This document shows positions 10,907 to 25,478 of a DNA stretch of 49,225 bases, one piece after another; within the stretch, counting starts at the first letter, position 1, and every line of letters starts with the position of its first letter. Source of the stretch: a virus; the IMG/VR virus record IMGVR_UViG_3300018405_000004. The stretch is one strand, 5' to 3'. The translations under genes were made by a program, and so were the position numbers. The notes beneath the pieces are model-generated. The model did no database searches and was not told where the DNA came from. It saw only the letters and a program-made list of their open reading frames with translations.

Positions 10907-11182
10907 CTACCGGTTCACTCTCAACTCTTCAATCTTTCCGATGGCTCGTAACTTACCGTTGCACTCGTCCAGCGCATCCAGCAGCGTCAGGTTAAGCACC
11001 ACGCTGTCGCCGTAGGTCATCTGTTCTGGGATTTGTGGCACCGGGCATTCAGTTGGCAGGCTGGCTGGTATCGGCAGGTACGGTTGCTTTACCGTTTCGT
11101 ACACCGTCAGCGGCTTCGCGCATCCTGACAAGAGCGCCAGCAGGGATAAGCTCAACAGAGCACATGCTGTCTTTGAGGGCAC
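10907..11182 (-). CDS. Rz1: o-spanin (Rz1-type outer-membrane lipoprotein)
   Basis: GTG start with a GAGGTGA SD. Signal peptide plus lipobox LLSGC. Partly overlaps the 3' end of Rz in another frame. Confidence 0.8.
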   Translation of the reverse strand: MPSKTACALLSLSLLALLSGCAKPLTVYETVKQPYLPIPASLPTECPVPQIPEQMTYGDSVVLNLTLLDALDECNGKLRAIGKIEELRVNR

Positions 11183-11471
11183 TTTTCACCTCTTCCTGCA
11201 GGCGTTGGGATTTCATTTCAGCAGCTGCGCGACGCCGGGATTCTGTAGCCACGATGTCATTCATCGACTTAACCTCAGTGGTCAGGTCGTTGACGGATTT
11301 AATCAGGGCGTCATTCTTACTGGAGAGTTGGGCTGTTTGTTCGGAGAGTGTGGAATTCTCTTTCACCAGGTCCTGGTAGTTGCTGGTCATTCGCATGCCG
11401 ACAAATATCAGAAACGCTACACCACCGATGATGACGATGTCTTTCGCGGTTGGCGGCTTGATGTCAAACAT
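11049..11471 (-). CDS. Rz: i-spanin (Rz-type)
   Basis: Start MFDIKPP. One N-terminal TM helix followed by a coiled-coil periplasmic domain. Follows the endolysin gene. Confidence 0.8.
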
Positions 11472-11973
11472 TCTTCTGCCCCCACACACAAACCTCTCGC
11501 TCTATCTCGCGGCGGTTAATCAGACCTTTCCACTGCTTTCCGCCCGCATATGTCCATCTGCGTAGCTGGTCACAAGCACCGGCGCTGTCGCCTTTGTTGA
11601 TGAGTCGCAGGAGGGTTGAAGTTTTGAATGCTGATACGCCAACGTTGTACGCGAATGAGTACATCGCCCCGCGCATAGTGTCAGGGATATCAGCGTTAAT
11701 AACCGGATCAATCTGTCGGGCAACAGACTGAAGGTCTGCATTGAGCAGGTCCATGCATTGCTGTTCAGTGTATCGCTTACCCATCACCACATCTGGGCCG
11801 GTATGGCCCCAGCATACGGTTGGTACACCAACCACATCGCGATAAGGGATGTATTTCACACCTTCGAGCCCATCATTACCCGTTGGGCCCATTATCAGTG
11901 CACCCGCAACCGCTATAGCTCCTGCCGTTGATGCTGCAATGACCTTGTTACGAAACGCTGTAGACATCGCCAT
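11464..11973 (-). CDS. SAR-endolysin (T4-type lysozyme, GH24)
   Basis: AGGAG SD before the ATG at 11973. N-terminal weakly hydrophobic SAR segment [17 protein letters not shown]. Catalytic region [23 protein letters not shown]. Confidence 0.85.
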
Positions 11974-11974
11974 G

Positions 11975-12259
11975 TCATTGCTCCTGAGGCATAGCGCCTG
12001 CAATGTCAGTCATCTTTGGTAGGGGTTGAGTGCTGTCTGATTTTGAATAGGCGCGGTTGATAATTTCAGTGCGCTTTTTCTCTTCCTCAATCACTGCATT
12101 GTTGCGGCGATTGTTAGAGCGGTAGGTTAACCAGGTAAACAGGGCTGTAACCACGGCACCCAGGGCAAACAGCACATCCTGTAACGTTAGCATGGTGAAA
12201 AAACCCGTCATGGTTGTCCAAAAATAGGACCAGAAGCCATTGCTGTTATTCATGCGCAT
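11975..12259 (-). CDS. Holin with dual-start motif (Met-Arg-Met)
   Basis: GGAGGTGA SD, then ATG at 12259 and ATG at 12253 (MRMNN..). TM segments are present. First gene of the lysis cassette. Confidence 0.75.
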
Positions 12260-12333
12260 ATCTCTCACCTCCGTAGTTTTCGGAAGTGCTGTGTTAGCCG
12301 ATGAATCCCGATGCGGTTATCCGGATCCAGAAA

Positions 12334-12356
12334 TAAAAAACCCGCTCAAGGCGGGG
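12334..12356 (-). terminator. Intrinsic terminator between the tRNA cluster and the holin gene
   Basis: On the minus strand: CCCGC-CTTGA-GCGGG followed by TTTTTTA. Confidence 0.65.
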
Positions 12357-12388
12357 AGGGGAAAAGGTACAGCGGCTGGTATGGAATT

Positions 12389-12463
12389 TGGTGCCGGGCA
12401 AAGGAATCGAACCTCTGACGCATTGCTTACAAGGCAATCGTTCTGCCACTGAACTAGACCGGC
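12389..12463 (-). tRNA. tRNA-Thr (anticodon UGU)
   Basis: Cloverleaf read by eye. Anticodon arm ATTGC-CTTGTAA-GCAAT and T-arm AGAGG-TTCGATT-CCTTT; the 3' CCA is encoded. One U-C mismatch in the acceptor stem. Confidence 0.75.
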
Positions 12464-12467
12464 TTAT

Positions 12468-12544
12468 TGGTGGGCCATAAAGGATTCGAACCTTCTGCCA
12501 TTCCCTTATGAGGGGACCGCTCATACCAAATGAGCTTCTGGCCC
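12468..12544 (-). tRNA. tRNA with CAU anticodon (Met, or Ile2 if lysidine-modified)
   Basis: Anticodon arm TCCC-CTCATAA-GGGA, T-arm GAAGG-TTCGAAT-CCTTT, acceptor GGGCCA/TGGCCC; CCA is encoded. Confidence 0.7.
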
Positions 12545-12550
12545 GGAATT

Positions 12551-12625
12551 TGGAGCATCTGGCGGGGATCGAACCCGCATATTCTGGGTGGAAGCCAGAC
12601 GTAATTACCAAACTACGACAGATGC
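12551..12625 (-). tRNA. tRNA-Gly (anticodon UCC)
   Basis: Perfect acceptor GCATCTG/CAGATGC, anticodon arm TCTGG-CTTCCAC-CCAGA, T-arm GCGGG-TTCGATC-CCCGC; CCA is encoded. Confidence 0.85.
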
Positions 12626-12671
12626 AAATAAAAAAAGCCGCCGTGGCAACTTAAGAGTCACGAACGGCAGC
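12626..12671 (-). terminator. tR'-like terminator just downstream of the late promoter
   Basis: On the minus strand: GCTGCCGT...ACGGCGGC stem followed by TTTTTTTATTT, about 20 nt after the predicted late start site. Confidence 0.55.
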
Positions 12672-12681
12672 TTATGTGTTA

Positions 12682-12710
12682 ATGATTGCTCATTTGCTCA
12701 ATGATGTCAA
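12682..12710 (-). promoter_or_regulatory. pR'-type late promoter (target of Q)
   Basis: On the minus strand: TTGACA, 17 bp spacer, AATCAT. It lies immediately after the Q stop codon, as in lambdoid phages. Confidence 0.55.
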
Positions 12711-12716
12711 CACGTT

Positions 12717-13205
12717 CTAAGCAACATGCTTAACTTTATCGACACGTTTGCGGTTGTTAAACGCATTTACCATTGGTTGATACAGAAAGTACATTGTGGC
12801 TGACAGGATTTCATCCACTTCCCGGCGACAGGTAATGAGGGATGGCCGCCTAATTCTTTCACCGCCCCTCCCTACCATTTTGCGAGGACTTGCGGTCTTG
12901 TGGTAGTAGGATGATATTGAGTATTTAGATGAGCCGTGAGCGTAGTAGCTGAGCAGAATACCGAAGGCTTTCTTGTCAATCTGCATGACGGAATCGACGA
13001 CCTGAGAAATCAACATTCCATCATCATCATTGCACATTGGGCGAGTCGGGTTTTTACTTGGCTCTACGCTTTCCATCCACTGGTAAATCATGCTGCTCAT
13101 GCGCTTTTCCAGTCTCCCGGAGTAAACCCATGCGCCCCACAATTCCAGCCAGCTATTGAGCCACTCATGCTGCTCATTGGTGAGTTTCAGTTCATGTATG
13201 CTCAT
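12717..13205 (-). CDS. Q: Late antiterminator Q (QuuD / phage-82-type family)
   Basis: 162 aa. The pattern WLELWGAW...RPMCNDDDGMLISQ...LLSYYAHG matches the Phage_antitermQ pattern. Lies upstream of the late promoter. Confidence 0.8.
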   Translation of the reverse strand: MSIHELKLTNEQHEWLNSWLELWGAWVYSGRLEKRMSSMIYQWMESVEPSKNPTRPMCNDDDGMLISQVVDSVMQIDKKAFGILLSYYAHGSSKYSISSYYHKTASPRKMVGRGGERIRRPSLITCRREVDEILSATMYFLYQPMVNAFNNRKRVDKVKHVA

Positions 13206-17000: not shown

Positions 17001-17291
17001 TTATTGAACAGGGCGGCCGCACCACGATTTATCGTCGTGAAGCTCTTTACAGCGAAGCCAGATACAGTCGTAAACGAATGGGATGAAAGCCCTGAAGAAC
17101 TCTTCCCATTGCGATGGCCGGAAGCCAGTTACTTCGTCTACCATCGCCTCAATCGGCGTTCTGCGAACCGGGGGGCGTGTTACACCATAAAGCCGCTCGA
17201 AGTTTTCGATAAGCTCCTGCTCTTCCAGGCAGGTATCGAGCACCGCTGCGAATCGTGGGTTGGTGAGAAGTAAAAGCACTTGCTTTTTCAT
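17001..17291 (-). CDS. Hypothetical protein (96 aa)
   Basis: ATG at 17291 forms an ATGA overlap with the DnaB stop. The longer track start at 17351 is rejected. Confidence 0.55.
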
Positions 17292-19681
17292 ACGTCTGCA
17301 CCTTTTGAATACCGCTTGCCCTTCGCTGGCTGATGACCTGTAGATGTGCAAATCCCCCTCGCCTCATCCTGATCGCAATCCATAAAGTGACCATTAACGA
17401 AGCGCTGATAAACGGTACCCAGCGAGCCGAAACGGTTTTTAGTCACGATGATTTCTGCGAATTTTGCCGCCAGGCTGTTCTCGTCATACACCGCCTCGCG
17501 GTAGAGCATGATGATTGAGTCGGCGTCCTGCTCGATGCTGCCAGAGTCGCGAAGGTCTCCGTTGGTGGGGCGTTTGTTGGGTCGTTTCTCAACTTCGCGT
17601 GATAGCTGGCTCAGTGAGATGACCGGGGTTTTTAGGTCTTTCGCCATTCCCTTTAGGCTGCCAGAGATATGCGCGATAGCCAGGTCATTGCGATCGGCTT
17701 TCGGTTTCTCAATCAGGCCCAGGTAATCGACCATGATTAGCGACAGTTGCGGATGCGACTGCTTGTGCCGTTCTGCCACCGCGCGGATCTGCTCGACAGT
17801 CAGCTTTGACGCATCAACCAGCCAGACATCCAGGTCCTGCAACCGGGCAATGCCATTCGATACCCTGGCCCAGCCTTCATCGTCCATGCGCGCCGGGTTA
17901 CGTAGTACGCTAACCGACATGTTCCCGGCCCCGGCAATGCTTCGCTCGGCAATCTGAAGTTTGCTCATCTCCATGCTGAAAATCAGCACACCGCGCCTCG
18001 TGTTACTGCCGGGTATCATCCGGCTCGCAACGCCCTCAGCAATTTTCAGCGCCAGTTCCGTATTGTGCGTAACGATGTAATCCGTTGTCACATAGAGATG
18101 GCTAGGATGACTCACCATAATGCAGAGACATTCTTCTGGCTCAACCGCTTCCACCGATTTGATTCCCACACCAAGGTCGCCAAGCCTGTTAATGCCAAGG
18201 TTTTTGCGTAAACGTGGTGAGTGAATTTGCTCTATTACAGATGAAGGCAACTTCATGCTGACCATATACGCATCAAGCCCTTTAAGCTTTTCTCCTTTGT
18301 ACGTGTAAACTATTCCCGTCCTGCTGGATTCTTTTGCGGTTCCACCCAGAGATCTAACAAGCTTTATTAATCCTTTAGCTAATTTCTGGCTGGATGAACT
18401 AAAGCGGATGCATCCAAACTTCTCTATCCAACCGTCGGTTTCAAGAAGGCCAGTTAAAACACCGGTACGTATTTCTTTATTAGCACTAAATATTTCTGCT
18501 GGGATTTCCTTCTCGGAAGCTCCTTTCCCAATTAACCCAAGACCACGCAGTTTGTCCAATAATGGGTTCTTTTGCCCTTTTTGATTGCTGATCAGATAAT
18601 CATTTTCTCCTACCTTAACCAGTCGTAGTGGTGCAATTGCATGGGTCATGCGGTTCAGGACGTATTCTTCTGAGTTGGTGAATTTGACGCCATTTATCAA
18701 CGAGCCATCACCAAGGAGAGCCCCTATAACCCAACCATCAAGGGGTATATTCCCACCAAAGTCTCCGGTAACTGCTGGAACTCTTATTCTTCCCTGATAG
18801 CGTGTTTTTTGTAGCATCCCAGCAAGAGCATCAGTATCAACAACACGTTTACCCGTAAATTTTGATGATGAAATTTCCCATAAGTGGTTGTCGGCACATT
18901 TCACGCTGCGTCCATCTTCAAAGGTAACTAAGTAGGTGAATTTCTTTCCTTGCGGGAACACTCCTATTACCTCAGAAGGAGCCCCATCTATTGACGCGAT
19001 GCGATCGCCAATTTTGATTTCACCGTGAGTTGTCCAAATGCCATCTGCAAGCAAAATCCCTTCATTCAGTGCCATTGCTTTACCCATACCAGGCCGGGCG
19101 GCGATAATCACCAGGTCTTCGGCGTTCATTCCTCCGGTGATGGCGTCCAGGTCGTCAATGCCGGTCTTCATCGTGTCGGATTCTTCGCCGTTGGTCAGGC
19201 GCTTCTCCAGGGTGTCGGTGTAGTCCGTCAGCAGGTCGCCAAGGCGTACTGGCTGAATCTCATGCTTAGGCTTCCTGATGACGCTCAGACGCTTTGTCAG
19301 CTCGTCCATTGCCTGCGATGACTGGTCCAGCGTTCCGTTGCTGATAGGCCCGCGCATTTCGTCCAACAGTTGCAATACCAGGCGACGCTCGTAGGAGTCC
19401 GTTACCATCCCGGCGTAGCCTTTCAGGTTAGCGGCGCTCGGGCAGGATTTAGCGGTCTCCATGATGTCCGCGAAATGCCCGTCACCGCATTCCTCGGCAA
19501 CCATCAGGCCATCAATCAGGTTTCGCACTGCGGCTTGTTTCTGGATGACGCGATAGGCTGTCTGGTATAGCGGGATGGAAAATGCTTCTGGCGGTACGGT
19601 TGCGAGAACTTCACTGGCTGCCGGTGTCAGGCCGCCAATCAGCAGGCCGCCGATAACGCTGGCTTCGATATCCTGTCTCAT
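17288..19681 (-). CDS. dnaB: Replicative DnaB-type helicase (P22 gp12 analogue) interrupted by an intein
   Basis: N-terminal DnaB domain. Walker A ARPGMGK is split from [10 protein letters not shown] by 339 aa. Downstream RecA-like motifs IMVDYLGL and SLSQLSR. Confidence 0.9.
18062..19078 (-). mobile_element. Intein (339 aa, Ala202-Asn540) with a LAGLIDADG homing-endonuclease domain; class-3-like
   Basis: Excising A202-N540 restores GMGK|T. Block [13 protein letters not shown] (H266, W268). LAGLIDADG motifs [12 protein letters not shown] and [11 protein letters not shown]. Block F CLCIMV (C520). Block G IVTHN|T. The region is AT-rich by eye. Confidence 0.8.
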
Positions 19682-20802
19682 TGAAGCCCCTTATCAGCAA
19701 ATTTAGCCTCACGAACACCAAGCAGTGTTTTATCGCGTAACAGGTAGTCGATGTCCGCCGCCCAGCCTGTGTCGTTTTGACCGAAGTAAAATGGTTTAGC
19801 CTGAGCGACAAACGCTTTCACGTATGCTCTCCAGCCTTCAACGTTTGGGGTCTTGAGTTGCGGTATGAGTTTCTTAAGGCGGCGCTTGCGGGTGTCATTC
19901 AGCGCAACGGCATGAGGTAATAACTCGCCGACCTCTTCGTTGTAAGCCTGAATGAATGCCTGGTAGTCAGTGCGATCTGCTTTTCGCTTTTCAGGTTTAG
20001 AAACCTGCGCATCTTCCCCCTCTGGGGGTAAGGGGGTATTTGTCTTTATTGTCTTTTGTATATTGTCTTTTGTGTGTACCTCACGCTGTAAATCGTGATT
20101 TACTGACGGTGTGACACTATCTGTCACATACGGTGTAAAACTTTCCATGACGGCGTTAATCTTATTTACCGCCTGAGTTACGGTAGTCCCGAACATCTCT
20201 CCATGAATCATCTGCCCTTTCATCGCTTCGTGGACTAATGGTTCGATAGCGCCTGCTTGCAGATGGAATGGCGAAATATAAAAGACTTGAGGATTATTAC
20301 CTTCGAAGTAGTACTTAACTTCTTTCAGTCTTTCTTCCGCATCCCGCGTGGTGAAACCGACTTTAACTGGTCCGAACTCATCTTCCGCAAAAACGTAAAT
20401 GTAACCAGCCTTATGCTTGGTAGAGCCATACTCCCTGCGACGCTCTGGACGCTCTACGCACCAATCAGAAAACACCTTGTTAATGCCAACCTTTCTACCC
20501 TCAGTGATCAACACATTCATGTTCAACAACTCTGTTTTAGTAGAGCTGCACCTGGTTCTTGGCATCCCGGTCATTTCTGACAATTGCTCGCCACTTATCC
20601 AGTCAAACTTCTTGTTGAATCCGTATGTTTTGCGGATTACAGCTAGCAGGAGTTTCATCTGCCGAACAGTGAAGTTGTTAGACATAATGGCATCGAGCAA
20701 ATCATTGGCGATGCGCGTATAGCCATCTTCAATGTCTGCCACCTGTCGCTCCATTGCCTCTTGTTGAGGCTTACGATAATCAGCTAACTTAACGACGCCC
20801 AT
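19678..20802 (-). CDS. Replication initiator (lambda O / P22 gp18-like) with an inserted T5orf172/GIY-YIG-like domain
   Basis: AGGAGG SD before the ATG at 20802. N-terminus [12 protein letters not shown]...[15 protein letters not shown] is Phage_rep_O-like. The middle segment GYIYVF..VKVGFT..R...H is T5orf172-like. C-terminus [11 protein letters not shown]. Confidence 0.8.
20016..20140. repeat. Candidate origin (ori) repeat cluster inside the initiator gene
   Basis: CCCCCTCTGGGGG palindrome followed by GGGGG; three copies of TTGTCTTT(T) at a 10-14 bp period; GTAAATC-GT-GATTTAC palindrome; ACGGTGT x2 flanking GTGACA-N5-TGTCAC. Confidence 0.45.
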
Positions 20803-20953
20803 GCCTACCTCCTGATGCGACAATTGCCAGCCGGATAACACCAATCAGACGTTCTGCGAACGCCCGGTTTTTAGAGGCTGCAACGACTAATCCATCAGGT
20901 GAATCAGGGTGCTCCCGCTCTTCTGCGGGAGTTTGTTTCTTGCGATTTTTCAT
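20789..20953 (-). CDS. Hypothetical basic 54-aa protein
   Basis: GGGGG SD before the ATG at 20953. The 3' end overlaps the initiator start by 14 nt. Confidence 0.4.
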   Translation of the reverse strand: MKNRKKQTPAEEREHPDSPDGLVVAASKNRAFAERLIGVIRLAIVASGGRHGRR

Positions 20954-20963
20954 GGCTAGCCCC

Positions 20964-21500
20964 CTACAAACGCATTGGCATGATGATGACTTGCCCGTTA
21001 CCGAACGCGCCGTTGAACTCGACGACGGCAGCATTTTCTGAGCCGCCAGGCTTAATTTTTACGCCGCAGAAACGGGGGTTATAGAGCTTCGCAGCCTTTT
21101 CGATATCAGCGAGGTAGCTGGCATTGAATCCAATCTCATCTACCGGTTTTGATTCATGCGAGGAGCGCAGTCTTTCAACATCAGGGAATCGCCCATCAAC
21201 CACCTTGCAAACGCCAGCAGATGTGCGCTCACCGTGTTCATCCAGGTAGGAAACGATTCCGGTATCAGTGTCGATTGAGGCAGTTTCAAACTTCGTAACC
21301 TTCGGTCCGCTGACAGCAACGATGACCTGTTCAACCAGGTCTTCGGTTGTGTGCTCACCGATAAAGGCGCGATGACCGTCAGTGGAGTAAAGTTTCTTAT
21401 CGGGAGAGAAACAGACGCCATTCAGGTAATAACGAACGTCGCCTTTAGCCTGGAATATCATTGCGCTCAGCAGCGCATTTTTGCTTACTGTCAAAATCAT
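20964..21500 (-). CDS. Truncated DNA polymerase III beta-clamp (DnaN) homologue, 178 aa
   Basis: GDVRYYLNGVCF..LYSTDGHRAF, VVDGRFPDVERL, IGFNASYLADI and the C-terminal IIMPMRL mirror E. coli DnaN domain II plus the last ~60 aa of domain III. Confidence 0.75.
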   Translation of the reverse strand: MILTVSKNALLSAMIFQAKGDVRYYLNGVCFSPDKKLYSTDGHRAFIGEHTTEDLVEQVIVAVSGPKVTKFETASIDTDTGIVSYLDEHGERTSAGVCKVVDGRFPDVERLRSSHESKPVDEIGFNASYLADIEKAAKLYNPRFCGVKIKPGGSENAAVVEFNGAFGNGQVIIMPMRL

Positions 21501-21519
21501 GGTATTCTCCAGTTGTGGT

Positions 21520-21810
21520 TTAGAAATCCATCGTCACTTGTGAATCCTCGGTTGCAGCCGGGGATTTTTTATTTGTGAGAATCGCTGCCACCTGAGACGC
21601 CAGCCGGGCCATCTCATCGTCAACAATCCCCCATTCAAGCACTGCCAGTAACATCGAAATCTTCGGGATAAAGTCCCGCTTCCATCGCGTTATCTGCGAG
21701 CGATCAACGCCGATTGCGTCAGCTATTGCCTTGCTTCCATGCAACGTGATTTTGTTGAGCAAGGTACTTTCAATCTGCCGCGCAGATGTGCGTGTGCGTG
21801 TACGTTCCAT
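21520..21810 (-). CDS. cII: CII lysogeny-establishment activator
   Basis: 96 aa. Near-collinear with lambda CII (IES.LLNKI..G......GVD.SQI.RWKRD.IPK.SMLLAVLEWG.VDD.MARLA.QVAAILTNKK.PAATE). Confidence 0.9.
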   Translation of the reverse strand: MERTRTRTSARQIESTLLNKITLHGSKAIADAIGVDRSQITRWKRDFIPKISMLLAVLEWGIVDDEMARLASQVAAILTNKKSPAATEDSQVTMDF

Positions 21811-21869
21811 TTGTCATACTTTCCTTGGTGAAATAGATAGTTATGCGCATTCGTTGATGCGCTTTAAGA

Positions 21870-21908
21870 AGGGACGAAACATCCCTGAGCCAGTAGTTTT
21901 AAAGAGCG
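21870..21908 (-). promoter_or_regulatory. nutR (boxA CGCTCTTTAAAA plus boxB hairpin)
   Basis: On the minus strand between cro and cII: boxA at 21897-21908 and boxB AGGGAUGUUUCGUCCCU at 21870-21886. A GCGCAT-N6-ATGCGC hairpin follows. Confidence 0.65.
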
Positions 21909-21916
21909 GGTGGTGC

Positions 21917-22111
21917 TTAAGCTGCTTTTTCTTTGCTTGGGAAAGGTTTGAATTCCTCACCTTTCACCGTGCCATCTTCCTGAACCGTCACAAAAATCTG
22001 TCGACCGGTTCGAATGGCTTTACTGATAGCGCACTGGATTACTCCAAAATCCTTCGCGGCCTTTGCCTGGCCGTGAATTTTTGCGTAATCCTCAAGTGTC
22101 ATTCTGGTCAT
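21917..22111 (-). CDS. cro: Cro repressor
   Basis: 64 aa. Collinear with lambda Cro (TL.DYA...GQ.K.AKD.GV.Q.AI.KAI..GR.IF.T...DG.V..EE.KPFPS). AAGGAG SD. Confidence 0.9.
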
Positions 22112-22139
22112 AGGCCTACTCCTTGAAGGTCACACCAAA

Positions 22140-22209
22140 AGAATACTACGGGTATTTGTTTTTGTAAATATCTTAGGTATTTTGGTTTAATTACCTGCGG
22201 TAATAGAAT
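22140..22209. promoter_or_regulatory. OR region: three 15-bp operators, with pR (minus strand) and pRM (plus strand)
   Basis: Operators AATACTACGGGTATT (22142-56), AATATCTTAGGTATT (22167-81) and ATTACCTGCGGTAAT (22190-204). pR is TTTACA-17-TATTCT (22163-68 / 22140-45). The candidate pRM -10 TAGAAT (22204-09) would place the start at the cI ATG, giving a leaderless transcript. Confidence 0.7.
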
Positions 22210-22215
22210 GAAGTG

Positions 22216-22926
22216 ATGGAAAATAAAAAGACCCTGACGGCAGAACAGCTTAGAGACGCAGAGCGACTTAAGGCTTTGTATGAGTCAAAAAAGAAAGATT
22301 TAAAAATCACTCAATACACAATCGCCGACGCGCTTGGCATATCGCAGGGCGCTGTGGGTCATTACATGAATGGTCGCATTGCTCTGAATGTTCCGGCGTT
22401 AACCTCTCTGGCGAAAATACTTAACGTCAGCCCAGCGGAGATAAGCCCGTCACTGGCTAAAGAAATTGGTGAGTACGCAAGGTCTATCGATGCGAACGTC
22501 TCAGGCTTTACGCCTTATACAAAAGGTGTTAGCTATCCGGTGCTGAGCAAGGTTCAGGCAGGTGCGTGGGCGGAAGCCGTTGAAGCGTACACCTTGAAGG
22601 ATATAGACCTCTGGCTTGAGTCTGATGCTCACATCCAAGGGGATGCGTTCTGGCTTGAAGTGGAAGGCGATTCGATGACCGCGCCGATGGGGTTGAGCAT
22701 ACCAGAAGGCACGTTTGTGCTTTTCGATACCGGTCGTGATGCATGCAATGGCAACCTGGTCGTAGCCAAGCTGCAAGATGACAACGAAGCGACGTTCAAG
22801 AAACTGATAATCGATGGCAGTCAGCGCTATCTGAAGGGGCTGAACCCGCAGTGGCCGCTGGTTTCAATCAATGGCAACTGCACGATTATTGGCGTGGCTG
22901 TAGAGACGAAGCTGCGGCTGCTGTAG
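22216..22926 (+). CDS. cI: CI repressor (HTH plus S24/LexA-type autocleavage domain)
   Basis: Lambda CI-like length and layout. HTH ITQYTIADALGISQGAVGHYMNG. C-terminal S24 domain (GDSM...LVVAKL..ATFKKL). A GTG at 22213 is an alternative start. Confidence 0.9.
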   Translation: MENKKTLTAEQLRDAERLKALYESKKKDLKITQYTIADALGISQGAVGHYMNGRIALNVPALTSLAKILNVSPAEISPSLAKEIGEYARSIDANVSGFTPYTKGVSYPVLSKVQAGAWAEAVEAYTLKDIDLWLESDAHIQGDAFWLEVEGDSMTAPMGLSIPEGTFVLFDTGRDACNGNLVVAKLQDDNEATFKKLIIDGSQRYLKGLNPQWPLVSINGNCTIIGVAVETKLRLL

Positions 22927-22978
22927 TGGCCGGAAGAGACGTTCGGGTGATGCCTGCGAATTCAAAGAAGGATTGGTA

Positions 22979-23404
22979 ATGGAAAAGATTTCATTTTTGT
23001 ATGTTTCTCAAATCTTTCCTGGAAAGATAGCCAGATCATTAAATTATCCGCAACCATGGATCAAACCAGATGAAGAAACAGGGAAAATAAGCATTGACGT
23101 TTCTTTTGGGTTGATAATAAAAACAAAGATTAATTATCGAGTAGATGTCGATTTATTCTTTGGCGATCATCGCATTGAATTCGGCAGTGATCAGTCATTG
23201 CAAACAGACCCTATTGTCGCAGGTACTACATCAGGAAACGAATCAGTTAGCATTGAAAACATGTCCCTCATGAATATCCATATCAAAGATGAAGGTATAT
23301 ACAAGGTCACTCTTTCTCTGCACGCCATTGATGAATCAGAGGTAAGTCGTATAATTCATAGCTCTGAGTGTTTCTTCTATCTATCAAAAGAATGGAAAAT
23401 TTGA
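22979..23404 (+). CDS. Hypothetical soluble protein (141 aa), first gene of the cI-linked cassette
   Basis: AAGAAGGA SD. AT-rich. No TM segment or motif recognised. On the same strand as cI and 52 nt downstream of it. Confidence 0.65.
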   Translation: MEKISFLYVSQIFPGKIARSLNYPQPWIKPDEETGKISIDVSFGLIIKTKINYRVDVDLFFGDHRIEFGSDQSLQTDPIVAGTTSGNESVSIENMSLMNIHIKDEGIYKVTLSLHAIDESEVSRIIHSSECFFYLSKEWKI

Positions 23405-23405
23405 T

Positions 23406-23873
23406 ATGTCACGCTCAGCTTTTGTCAGAAGGGATACGCCGGTTGCTAACGAAGAGTACAACGTGTATAATTTGAACAATGGTTATGACGGTGGAAGCGG
23501 CGGAGGTGGCAATATGACTGAACGCTTAGAGCGACTTGAAAAGAAAGTTGATTCTATGGAGTCAACACTGTCTCGCCTAAACGAAACCATCATTCGCATA
23601 GATGGAAAAATTGAGTTACAAGGAATTAAACTCGCTAGCGCACTTGAACAGCAATCCGTTAAGCTATCTTCAGCGATGGAATTGCAAGGCCAGAGGCTTT
23701 CTTCTGCACTCGAACTTCAATCACAAAAGATGACTTCCACCTTAGAGAATCAGTCCATTTCTTTTGATGGCAAGCTCAAGGATCAAAAACTGGCTATCAT
23801 CTTATGGATACTGGGATTGCCAAGCTTAGTCTTCGGTCTTTATAAGCTCTTTGAGGTTTTCTCGCCTCGATAG
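23406..23873 (+). CDS. Coiled-coil protein with a C-terminal TM anchor (155 aa; 119 aa if it starts at Met37, nt 23514)
   Basis: Five 11-residue repeats (nt 23616-23780). TM helix LAIILWILGLPSLVFGLYKLF. A strong GGAGGTGG SD precedes the internal ATG at 23514. Confidence 0.65.
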   Translation: MSRSAFVRRDTPVANEEYNVYNLNNGYDGGSGGGGNMTERLERLEKKVDSMESTLSRLNETIIRIDGKIELQGIKLASALEQQSVKLSSAMELQGQRLSSALELQSQKMTSTLENQSISFDGKLKDQKLAIILWILGLPSLVFGLYKLFEVFSPR

Positions 23874-23891
23874 GTTTAACGCATTAATAGA

Positions 23892-23916
23892 ACCCGGCCA
23901 CCGAGCCGGGTTTTTT
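23892..23916 (+). terminator. Intrinsic terminator closing the cI operon
   Basis: CCCGGC-CACCGA-GCCGGG followed by TTTTTTA. Confidence 0.8.
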
Positions 23917-24073
23917 ATGCCTGTTTCTGGTGATCCCAAGTAGGTGCAATTACCGCCATAAATCCCAGACAAACCCGCATGTAGACTGCCTTTACCGGTG
24001 ATCCAATTTTTGGTTAACGCTAGCACTACTGGTTAATCATTTACCACGGGTGACATCGTTAACCACCTGCGCC

Positions 24074-24274
24074 CTACTCTTCCGGCAAAGAAAGAACATC
24101 CAGCGCCAACTCTACCGCCAAGTCCACCTGATCTTCCTGCCATAGCACCTGAATCATTTCTATCAGCGCCTCTCTCGACGGCTCGCGCTTCTCAACCAGC
24201 AGTTGCATAACAGCTGTTCCAAGCACTTCAACTATCTGCGGATGAAGCTCAGCAAAGAATTTGTCTCGTTCCAT
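24074..24274 (-). CDS. Small acidic helical protein (66 aa), possibly YmgB/AriR-like
   Basis: AGGAGG SD before the ATG at 24274. LGTAVMQLLVEK....ALIEMIQVL......LAVELALDVL loosely resembles the AriR family (weak recollection). Transcribed divergently from the OL region. Confidence 0.5.
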   Translation of the reverse strand: MERDKFFAELHPQIVEVLGTAVMQLLVEKREPSREALIEMIQVLWQEDQVDLAVELALDVLSLPEE

Positions 24275-24339
24275 AGCCACCTCCTGATGTTTTTTTGAGC
24301 ATATCACGGCAAAAACAAAATTAAATAACCTTGTAAATC

Positions 24340-24410
24340 AATATCTAGAGTATTCATCATTAAAAATAAATACTCCGGGTATTTACTAAAATAAATACTA
24401 TGAGTATTCT
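24340..24410 (+). promoter_or_regulatory. OL region: three operators plus pL
   Basis: Operators AATATCTAGAGTATT (24340-54), AATACTCCGGGTATT (24369-83) and AATACTATGAGTATT (24394-408). pL is TTTACT-17-TATTCT (24382-87 / 24405-10), the same architecture as pR. Confidence 0.7.
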
Positions 24411-24456
24411 TAGTCCATCAGCAGGACGCTGAGACGCAACAAGGACTGAGTTGCAG

Positions 24457-24493
24457 GCTCTTTAACAAGATGACATGGGGATGATTCGTCCCC
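24457..24493 (+). promoter_or_regulatory. nutL (boxA GCTCTTTAACAA plus boxB hairpin)
   Basis: boxA at 24457-68 matches the rrn-type boxA. After an 8-nt spacer comes boxB GGGGAUGAUUCGUCCCC (24477-93), which matches the nutR boxB core GGGAUG(A/U)UUCGUCCC. Confidence 0.65.
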
Positions 24494-24650
24494 GCCAAAG
24501 GATGTTGCTTTGGGGTGTGGTGAGTCAGAAATGACTACTGCGGTATATGGGTGACGGCGGGCTCGTAAGGCTGACCGTGTGACACGTTCGATTCGTGTAG
24601 TCGCAGGAATGCGCACGCCACACCACCAAAGCAACCACTGGAGGTATCCA

Positions 24651-24911
24651 ATGAAAGCCAGAGAGATTCGCAAGCTCGAACGTGCTCGCCAGCACAATGA
24701 GATGAAAGCCTACTGCAAGAAGATTGACCGTGCATTTTCACGGTTATCTGAAGGTTGTTCAAACCGGGTAATAAACGCCATCACAACAGCCACTACGCTG
24801 GGAATGATGGGTAAGGAAGTGAGTGAGGGTTCTGCATGCATGCCGGAAATTGCAATATTCGCAGCCGGTCACCGCAAAGTCAGGAAGGACGCAACACACA
24901 TCATCAAATAA
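24651..24911 (+). CDS. N-like transcription antiterminator candidate (86 aa)
   Basis: First gene after pL and nutL. GGAGG SD. N-terminal Arg-rich motif MKAREIRKLERARQH. No sequence similarity to lambda N noticed. Confidence 0.55.
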   Translation: MKAREIRKLERARQHNEMKAYCKKIDRAFSRLSEGCSNRVINAITTATTLGMMGKEVSEGSACMPEIAIFAAGHRKVRKDATHIIK

Positions 24912-24934
24912 GTCGCTACGGCGGCTTTTCTTTT
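24912..24934 (+). terminator. Intrinsic terminator after the N-like gene
   Basis: GTCGC-TACG-GCGGC followed by TTTTCTTTT. Confidence 0.6.
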
Positions 24935-24956
24935 GCCTAAATTTGAGGGTTTAACA

Positions 24957-25478
24957 ATGAATGCCACTGAGTTATCCAAGATTCTCGAAGAGCATAAGGT
25001 CTACGTAACGTCATTCGGTGAGAACGGATCGAAAGCCAACCTGTACGGTGCCAACCTGCGCGGTGCCGACCTGCGCGGTGCCAACCTGCGCGGTGCCAAC
25101 CTGCGCGGTGCCGACCTGCGCGGTGCCAACCTGCGCGGTGCCAACCTGCGCGGTGCCAACCTGCGCGGTGCCGACCTGCGCGGTGCCAACCTGTACGGTG
25201 CCGACCTGTACGGTGCCGACCTGCCTGATCTCACTTTCGTAATCGTGGGTGAGAAGTACTTCATCAGCATCACTAACGGTGAATATGTCCGGGCCGGATG
25301 CCAGAATCACACCGCCGATGAATGGCGCAAATATAGCAAACACGACATCGCAGAAATGGATGGGCGTACCGCACTGAAATTCTATCCACGTTTGCTGGAT
25401 ATTATCGATTTCTATCTCAGCAAAGGCGAGAGGCCTGAATGGCTGACCAGCAAAGAATATGTTGAAGAGGTCGCATAA
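24957..25478 (+). CDS. Pentapeptide-repeat protein (173 aa) with a non-repeat C-terminal domain
   Basis: 13 consecutive A(N/D)L(R/Y)G pentapeptides. ATG at 24957 after GAGGG. Confidence 0.85.
25035..25229 (+). repeat. Near-perfect 15-bp tandem repeat (12 full units plus 1 degenerate) encoding the pentapeptide coils
   Basis: Units GCC(A/G)ACCTG(CG/TA)CGGT read directly. A 45-bp superunit ([15 protein letters not shown]) is also visible. Confidence 0.95.

Follow-up and report, generated by a model that had tools for sequence, protein, structure and literature searches.

Temperate phages keep genes that act in the lysogen in the region next to their repressor gene. What do the two small genes that occupy this region in a lambda-like temperate phage do for the prophage? 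The genes in question, termed orfA and orfB here, lie on the plus strand of a 49,225-nt stretch of DNA, IMG/VR virus record IMGVR_UViG_3300018405_000004, which is called the window below; the lambda-like nature of the phage is evident from the gene content around the pair. Their position, directly behind a cI-type repressor gene, is exactly the slot of rexA and rexB in lambda, which lie downstream of the repressor gene in the immunity region (PMC12894663). We find that orfA and orfB are best explained as a mobile two-protein accessory cassette, or moron, that rides with lysogeny repressors. It is very probable that the two proteins work as a complex and that the cassette is expressed in the lysogen. 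We further propose, with a probability of about 40%, that the pair may act as a lysogen-expressed, membrane-tethered abortive anti-phage module.

Repressor-linked occurrence of the gene pair

The repressor gene cI (22213..22926, plus strand) encodes a protein of 236-237 amino acids (aa), which is called as 236 aa on sister contigs. It shows Pfam matches to Peptidase_S24 (3e-24) and to the helix-turn-helix (HTH) family HTH_3 (3.6e-9), together with a PHROG match to phrog_4 (3.5e-50), and is presumed to be the first gene of the pRM transcript. The 52-nt spacer behind it (22927..22978, plus strand) contains no terminator and no significant structure, as its RNA fold is no better than that of shuffled sequences (z = -0.83), and it carries an AAGGA ribosome-binding site 8 nt upstream of the orfA ATG at 22979. 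According to the open reading frame (ORF) listing, orfA (22979..23404) encodes 141 aa and orfB (23406-23873) encodes 155 aa, both on the plus strand. A single base, T 23405, separates the TGA of orfA from the ATG of orfB, and the same 141-aa and 155-aa products were called independently on at least 12 sister metagenome contigs. The cI-orfA-orfB unit is closed by an intrinsic terminator (23889..23916, plus strand), the hairpin of which (23889-23914) has 10 pairs (6 G-C plus A-U and G-U) and the loop CACCGA, followed by a T tract; its folding energy is -21 kcal/mol (z = -3.2). The G+C content is 0.357 in orfA and 0.434 in orfB versus 0.510 in cI and 0.500 in the window, and the sliding G+C profile drops to 0.36. 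A preliminary description of this DNA, made from the letters alone, had reported two AT-rich reading frames directly after cI, on the same strand and 1 nt apart, before a strong terminator and in a rexAB-equivalent slot. These statements agree with the coordinates, the composition and the hairpin energy given above, and with the location of the pair between the operator clusters OR and OL in co-orientation with cI.

Close homologues of orfA (67-90% identity) were found in Salmonella, Klebsiella, Serratia, Pectobacterium, Yersinia, Citrobacter and Atlantibacter. Klebsiella also commonly carries a second clade, at about 40% identity, one member of which (P0077) is listed in 166 blocks of the collection. 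Searching 1.8 billion representative proteins with the orfA profile yielded 63 matches at E <= 0.001, most of them stand-alone proteins of 140-153 aa and about nine of them Ig-repeat (immunoglobulin-repeat) stretches in giant proteins; the family, whose stand-alone members are mostly of this length, is uncharacterised. The counts for orfB are lower bounds, as the exact product was absent from the homologue-search output (best match 68% identical) though orfA was returned at 100%, which is probably an indexing quirk since the gene is recorded on sister contigs. Megablast of the cassette found no match in E. coli complete genomes and, among phage records, matched at the start of cI alone. A scan of GTDB genome contigs with the alignment of the orfA family confirmed no locus.

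The members of the two families, called A and B from here on, are tied to each other. Seen from A, a B-type gene begins -13 to +2 nt from the A stop in every complete locus examined, and the order is A then B in all loci. Seen from B, the upstream gene belongs to the A family by hidden Markov model (HMM) in 8 of 13 further loci (E 2e-47 to 2e-5). In another three of the 13 it encodes a 141-aa 'GKIAFMFPAKFN' protein with a weak co-linear alignment to the A profile (hhalign E = 1.4e-3, probability 17%), and these partners may, on this alignment, be remote relatives of A. The last two comprise one locus with a Cys-rich upstream protein and one cut by the contig end. Obligate pairing of A and B, with more than 40 loci, is therefore well supported. 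A Cys-rich partner also stands with the B-type gene of a Xenorhabdus locus, and the Cys-rich upstream proteins suggest that alternative soluble partners exist for the same membrane module. At L034 3650-4510 and L062 2125-2938 the gene in front of the B-type gene encodes a Cys-rich protein (112-125 aa) whose CxxC motifs may form a zinc ribbon.

The genomic surroundings point to lysogeny. In the enterobacterial loci with upstream sequence, tail-module copies aside, the gene upstream of the cassette is nearly always a lysogeny repressor. The repressor types include several S24-type cI alleles, non-S24 repressors, RacR-like HTH proteins and an Arc/Mnt-like ribbon-helix-helix (RHH) protein, and the spacer between repressor and A is 10-72 nt in these other loci. 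The linkage of the pair to lysogeny is thus well supported. The tail-module copies are found in Morganella prophages. The pair is flanked there by the tape-measure and the DNA-circulation (baseplate) genes of a Mu-like tail module and is closed by its own strong terminator. HK630/HK620-type phages, in which the start of cI is 83% identical, carry a single unrelated gene, hkaS, in the same slot. Deviant G+C (0.36-0.43 versus 0.50), terminators in both contexts, a variable slot and different genomic sites are hence all present, as in morons. Two loci depart from the common arrangement in detail: at L064 1740-2953 an RHH gene (Arc/Mnt-type, not cI) overlaps the start of A, and at L063 1963-3395 the pair follows a tape-measure-like gene, with an RHH gene on the other strand.

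A similar pair is present in the temperate Anoxybacillus phage A403. A gene for an A-like beta protein of 134 aa is followed there, with overlapping stop and start, by a gene for a 184-aa coiled-coil protein with a C-terminal membrane helix (L038 3432-4390, corresponding to MG969427 35864-36822), between the immunity repressor/ImmA genes and the integrase gene. The 134-aa protein shows a weak sequence match (E = 0.04) and is the second-best structural neighbour of the A model, and tblastn with a distant A member against about 50,000 phage records gave a weak match to the same phage. A403 is probably a Firmicute example of the cassette. The A403 record places the attachment site inside the second gene of the pair.

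Modular construction of the two proteins

The AlphaFold2 model of orfA, built with 23 homologues, is all-beta with nine strands, a predicted local distance difference test (pLDDT) score of 85.4 and a predicted template modelling score of 0.79. Foldseek against the PDB returned generic Ig domains, RhoGDI, NPC2 and ZP-C with TM-scores of 0.4-0.56 (best E 1.5e-3) and nothing below E = 1e-3. The top two neighbours in BFVD, both uncharacterised and about 140 aa long, were found at 6.7e-5 and 9.8e-5, and the second of them is the A403 protein. In addition, the orfA-family profile gave weak matches to titin and LRIG Ig domains in the PDB. The protein is thus confidently modelled as an Ig-like beta-sandwich, an assignment to a fold class and to no specific family. 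No family of Pfam, NCBIfam or PADLOC was matched at E <= 1, and the PHROGs matched are all of unknown function (phrog_5881 at 5.5e-35). The product is acidic, with a net charge of about -6 as counted from the sequence, has no signal peptide and is predicted to be cytoplasmic. The preliminary description, which had called the first protein soluble and without recognisable motif and had suggested PADLOC and Foldseek comparisons, is borne out by these scans: no PADLOC defence family was found, and the structural neighbours are of generic Ig type.

Comparison of orfA with six clade-1 homologues gave a proportion of synonymous differences of 0.72-0.80, which is saturated, and a non-synonymous divergence of 0.08-0.135. 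The ratio of non-synonymous to synonymous rates (dN/dS) is about 0.04 where computable, the synonymous sites being saturated, and orfB has a dN/dS of 0.15 versus its Serratia counterpart. By these comparisons both are real genes under purifying selection. The lack of any annotated family match and the AT-rich composition might instead be read as signs of chance reading frames or of decayed remnants without function. This explanation deserves hardly any credence, as synonymous sites are saturated against 8-13% amino-acid divergence, the model of A is confident, the same architecture recurs in many genera and gene callers agree on both products; it is refuted by the orfA model, the conserved pairing across loci and the selection analysis.

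The second protein is of an entirely different build. In the AlphaFold2 model of orfB, aa 1-33 are disordered (pLDDT below 50) and one unbroken helix covers aa 37-152. The first 28 residues (MSRSAFVRRDTPVANEEYNVYNLNNGYD, 23406..23489) form a disordered N-tail, the motif of which is conserved where a clade-1 A gene lies upstream. They are followed by the Gly run GGSGGGGN (aa 29-36, 23490..23513), recognised in the sequence and in the homologue alignment, which is a flexible hinge and the apparent recombination joint between the A/N-tail unit and the unit of coil and membrane helix. The next segment, aa 37-64 (MTERLERLEKKVDSMESTLSRLNETIIR, 23514..23597), is helical with a pLDDT of about 89 and is the best-conserved part of the B family, with E45 invariant and M37, R40 and L44 nearly invariant. 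Hendecad repeats with the consensus LELQSQKLSSA occupy aa 69-125 (23610..23780). The self-identity of the protein is 0.45 at lag 11 and 0.43 at lag 22, compared with at most 0.14 at other lags, and was reached by 0 of 20000 shuffles; TRF detected nothing at the DNA level, so that the repeat is one of the protein level only. Five such repeats had been described from the letters, of which the 11-residue periodicity is real; the count is reduced, as four units are good and the fifth is degenerate. The Gly-rich tail and the single C-terminal transmembrane helix of that description were likewise recovered. The general plan of the B-type proteins starts with a short N-tail and a Gly or Asp/Gly run, which is present in every one of them and ends in D/N-M. 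A conserved helix with the motif x-x-R-L/V-x-x-L-E-x-x-V and a helical stretch that varies come next, and a hydrophobic helix forms the C-terminus.

The only hydrophobic segment of orfB is C-terminal, and its Kyte-Doolittle score over 19 residues peaks at 1.94 (aa 131-149). On hydrophobicity and conservation the membrane helix was placed at aa 129-149 (LAIILWILGLPSLVFGLYKLF, 23790..23852); L136 and P139 are invariant and I131 is nearly so. The helix is preceded by a K-rich flank and followed by 6 residues. Because only six residues follow the helix and lysines precede it, we infer that orfB is a tail-anchored protein of the inner membrane with its N-terminus and bulk in the cytoplasm. No family of Pfam, NCBIfam or PADLOC was matched by orfB, and all its database matches are sub-threshold coiled-coil noise. 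In PADLOC-DB 2.0 the only match was LmuB (E = 0.0074), over the coiled-coil stretch, and the orfB profile retrieved generic, mostly trimeric, coiled coils from the PDB.

The predicted topology bears on one alternative function, superinfection exclusion without abortion, in which a complex of A and B at the cytoplasmic face of the inner membrane would block genome entry, ejected proteins or the tape measure, and the cell would survive. Its context would be the same lysogen-expressed one as that of the abortive module, and the Morganella copy adjoins a tape-measure gene, the kind of site at which the exclusion moron gp15 of HK97 is also located. Weak, sub-threshold matches to tape-measure N-termini were seen as well, to PF24164 for a Klebsiella variant (3.8e-4) and to phrog_20644 for orfB of the window (0.025). 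However, these matches amount to ordinary coiled-coil noise. Almost none of orfB would lie outside the cytoplasm, with 6 residues past the helix, and orfA is without a signal peptide, whereas most known entry blockers work at the periplasmic side or target membrane transporters. We regard exclusion of this kind as unlikely.

Division of B at the Gly run revealed how the pair is put together. Seventeen non-redundant A-B pairs were split at this run, and the pairwise identities of their parts were compared by Mantel tests with 5000 permutations. The identity of A is strongly correlated with that of the B N-tail (r 0.88, 0/5000 permutations), less so with that of the conserved helix (r 0.35, 0/5000 permutations) and hardly with that of the module of coil and membrane helix (r 0.15, p = 0.06). 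The co-variation of orfB with A therefore ends at the Gly run. Within the main A clade, mean identities fall from 0.81 in A through 0.61 in the tail and 0.51 in the helix to 0.35 in the C-terminal module. Loci L020 and L041 have nearly identical C-terminal modules despite A proteins of distantly related clades (84% and 19% identity to orfA of the window), and the cassettes of the window and of Morganella share a 'GKLKDxxLxIILWILGLPS' anchor, their A proteins and tails being only distantly related. Behind A, at least seven modules of coil and membrane helix replace one another, among them hendecad repeats, repeats of the heptad RFDxxDK and, in proteins of 99 aa, very short 'NYATKADV' types; an 'NYATKADV...' motif precedes the membrane helix in several B variants. 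By these sequence comparisons, A and the N-tail are one evolutionary unit, with the Gly run and the conserved helix as the joint, and the N-tail is proposed to be a docking peptide for orfA.

The hendecad coil, prominent in the preliminary description, does not define the cassette. Homologues of orfB vary in length by whole 11-residue units and, because homologous cassettes carry heptad coils or very short helices instead, the coil is an exchangeable rod or oligomerisation module whose length is not conserved. That the two proteins act together, as also suggested earlier, gains from the obligate pairing in more than 40 loci and from the co-variation of A with the B N-tail.

A further alternative is that the roles are reversed, as in Butters gp30/gp31 or a toxin-antitoxin pair. 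One partner would be toxic or the true effector and the other would sequester it, either B silencing A or A capping a holin-like B, and the cassette would serve as an addiction or defence module. The translational coupling over a 1-nt gap, the constant order of A then B and the co-evolution of the tether peptide with A are compatible with such an arrangement, and in the Butters system the membrane partner can be the sequestering part (PMC12894663). We nevertheless consider reversed roles quite unlikely. The Ig-like sandwich of orfA is no toxin-like domain, the Pfam and NCBIfam scans matched no toxin-antitoxin family, and the free exchange of the membrane modules of B suits an effector better than a passive anchor.

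Proposed working and its alternatives

Based on the layout and the modular construction, we propose the following working of the cassette as an abortive anti-phage module. In the lysogen, the pRM transcript would read through cI into orfA and orfB and end at the terminator at 23889-23916. The C-terminal helix of orfB would insert into the inner membrane, its helix of about 90 residues projecting into the cytoplasm and oligomerising as a coiled coil. The disordered N-tail, on its Gly hinge, might hold the acidic Ig-like orfA at the membrane, where orfA would serve in recognition. Contact of orfA or the tail with a superinfecting phage's product would make the orfB bundle rearrange and compromise the membrane, so that the infection is aborted or excluded. 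The logic would be Rex-like, with unrelated proteins.

Abortive Rex-like logic is favoured because both proteins are predicted to face the cytoplasm and because the membrane-helix modules, which are small and exchangeable and have Gly, Pro and Ser conserved, resemble effector modules. It is also favoured because all comparably placed pairs of a soluble and a membrane protein that have been studied by experiment are defence systems (PMC12894663); the proven cases next to a repressor are lambda RexAB, RexABpp of P. putida, Sbash gp30/31, CarolAnn and Butters (PMC12894663).

Several observations speak against this proposal. Scans of PADLOC, Pfam and NCBIfam found no homology to known defence proteins, and neither orfA nor orfB has an enzymatic or pore-forming signature. 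By tblastn, no close homologue of orfA or orfB was found in about 50,000 phage isolate records, so that no isolate offers a phenotype for comparison, and a full-text literature search found no paper on either family; a paper on HepS, taken up as a candidate report on these proteins, turned out to be unrelated. The expression of the pair in lysogens is deduced from the layout alone. The co-variation of A with the tail, r 0.88, is compatible with binding and is no proof of it, as the adjacency of the DNA segments alone would give co-variation. Finally, orfA is very strongly conserved in the main clade, unlike the expectation for a sensor in an arms race.

This strong purifying selection on orfA would suit a conserved host or self target, and thereby a role outside defence. 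Such a role might lie in lysis timing or holin triggering after induction, in the control of induction, in membrane or stress adaptation, or in another lysogenic conversion. Many repressor-adjacent genes have unknown, non-defence roles, and the layout of orfB is like that of XhlA from B. subtilis PBSX, with a weak match to that family (0.01, 16.5 bits). Like XhlA (PF10779) and the proteins named 'DUF1640', orfB is short, with a cytoplasmic coiled-coil helix and then a C-terminal membrane helix. However, the XhlA match covers aa 37-70 only and at 16.5 bits (17.5 bits for the Klebsiella variant) stays far under the 34.7 bits that Pfam requires. XhlA is part of a lysis operon and is without N-tail, Gly hinge and A partner, whereas orfB sits with the repressor. 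As for DUF1640 (DUF1640/CCDC90-like), which we take to be PF07798, no Pfam match at E <= 1 was found for orfB and the four B-type proteins scanned, though UniRef labels two B homologues (P0052 and P0062) as DUF1640.

The lysis genes of the phage argue in the same direction. The block at 11049-13205, on the other strand and far from the cassette, contains a Q-like antiterminator, an endolysin and an Rz-like spanin, so that the cassette stands apart from a late/lysis operon that is complete elsewhere. Since the pair is co-oriented with the repressor gene, its expression would be expected while the lysis genes are silent. The mosaic exchange and the insertion at different sites also resemble accessory or defence cargo. 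A non-defence role is therefore doubtful as the explanation of the cassette. The assignment of orfB, or of the cassette, to the holins or lysis genes was rejected outright, as the best holin PHROG match of orfB has E = 0.19 and a complete lysis block is present at 11049-13205. The preliminary description had named homology to a lysis family as an observation that would count against a defence function, and no holin or XhlA match above threshold was obtained.

The pair is thus of a known kind, that of prophage accessory cassettes which are linked to a repressor and combine a soluble with a membrane partner, and its two protein families are uncharacterised. RexB has four membrane helices, and to our knowledge the mechanism of RexAB is still not understood after decades. 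Like RexA/RexB of lambda and the Rex-type pairs of P. putida prophage P1, Sbash and CarolAnn, orfA and orfB are two co-oriented genes downstream of the repressor that end before OL/pL, and they encode one soluble and one membrane product. In the Rex system the soluble partner triggers the membrane effector (PMC12894663). The proteins themselves differ. RexA has a DNA-binding fold, whereas orfA is an acidic Ig-like sandwich of 141 aa, and RexB is polytopic and channel-like, whereas orfB has one C-terminal anchor and a long coiled coil; homology was found in neither case. A reading of the pair as RexAB homologues was therefore rejected, on the absence of Pfam, NCBIfam and PADLOC matches and on the different folds. 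This agrees with the earlier opinion, from the letters, that the pair is unrelated to RexAB, for which the missing family match, the one membrane helix of orfB and the acidic nature of orfA also speak. The proposed tether peptide and the exchangeable modules are features of the cassette that have not been described for Rex.

Gp30/gp31 of mycobacteriophage Butters are likewise a prophage-expressed pair of a cytoplasmic and a membrane protein, and homology to them was not detected. There, the membrane partner binds and holds the soluble one (PMC12894663). Further accessory genes of temperate phages that are expressed in lysogens and act against other phages are HK97 gp15, P22 SieA/SieB and BstA, which the cassette would resemble through its proposed effect on phages. 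The genes for gp15, SieA/SieB and BstA lie next to the repressor or as inserts in tail modules. BstA is a repressor-adjacent defence of the Salmonella prophage BTP1 (PMC8585504). No homology exists between the cassette and BstA or the single-gene exclusion morons, and the cassette differs from them as an obligate two-gene unit predicted to act at the cytoplasmic face of the membrane.

Compared with the preliminary description, what is new is that many prophages of Enterobacterales, and probably others, carry the pair as a conserved, mobile and modular two-gene unit. It is common in prophages of Klebsiella, Salmonella, Serratia, Pectobacterium, Yersinia, Citrobacter and Morganella. The defence-finding tools now in use do not see it and, at about 0.9 kb, it is small and easily cloned. 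A wider and more tentative proposal is that the cassette may be an unrecognised, widespread prophage immune system with an Ig-like sensor, a co-evolving peptide adaptor, a Gly hinge and interchangeable tail-anchored coiled-coil membrane effectors, present in Enterobacterales and at least one Bacillota phage, as a modular 'plug-and-play' counterpart of Rex. If the cassette is a defence system, it would form a new family built of a dissectable sensor domain, tether peptide, hinge and swappable membrane modules. It could then help to explain how soluble sensors switch on membrane effectors, and would bear on predicting how prophages of clinical Enterobacterales restrict therapeutic phages. Otherwise the cassette remains a gene pair that is linked to lysogeny and very widely distributed.

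Neighbouring features of the immunity region

The gene order around the cassette is OR, cI, orfA, orfB, terminator, a small convergent ORF, OL and N. The OR operator cluster (22136..22207), with AATACTACGGGTATT-type sites and the promoters pRM and pR, lies between cro and cI. The OL cluster (24335..24408) has three AATA(C/T)..GGTATT-type sites and precedes the N gene. Operators of the sequence AATACTnnGGGTATT are common to OR (22136-22207) and OL, where they are present in three copies (24335-24408), and the two clusters together make up inverted arms of 53 nt (repeat family D1 and inverted repeat I1 for both, with family D4 in addition for OL). OL marks the right-hand edge of the immunity region. 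To the left of the cassette, the minus strand encodes Cro (21917-22111) and CII (21520-21810), both with Pfam matches, as well as a DnaB helicase and the replication O protein; to the right, the plus strand encodes the N antiterminator (24579-24911, Pfam N_peptide 1e-11) and, further on, the integrase. A search of Rfam over 21500-25000 gave nothing credible.

The convergent ORF (24074..24274, minus strand) encodes 66 aa, matches phrog_3946 of unknown function (1.5e-37) and is called on sister contigs. A homologue is present at the same place in locus L008, and in other loci an unrelated small minus-strand ORF or a Pfam DUF2767 ORF replaces it. As a homologue or another such small ORF stands behind the pair at many loci, it may be a third, looser companion of the cassette. 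Between the terminator and this ORF lies a 157-nt non-coding gap (23917-24073) with a 13-nt direct repeat at 23924 and 23992 and a 27-nt imperfect inverted repeat at 24011-24065, the arms of which are 74% complementary and 1 nt apart; Rfam has no match to the gap.

Four other genes of the region have unusual features. Right after N, a pentapeptide-repeat protein is encoded at 24933-25478 (plus strand; Pfam Pentapeptide 1.9e-30) with near-perfect ANLRG(A/D)(N/D)LRG units. It is called as 138 aa on the sister contig L073 versus the 181-aa ORF here, and could have a DNA-mimic or anti-restriction function expressed early from pL. On the minus strand, a 178-aa gene between cII and O (20964-21500) matches phrog_3007, a RusA-like resolvase (1.8e-50), with a further weak match to a processivity-factor PHROG, and is an unusual occupant of this position. 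The replication O protein (19678-20844, minus strand) has an inserted T5orf172 domain. In addition, the DnaB-type helicase (17288-19681, minus strand, 797 aa) contains, between its N- and C-terminal domains, a LAGLIDADG-like stretch that looks like an intein.

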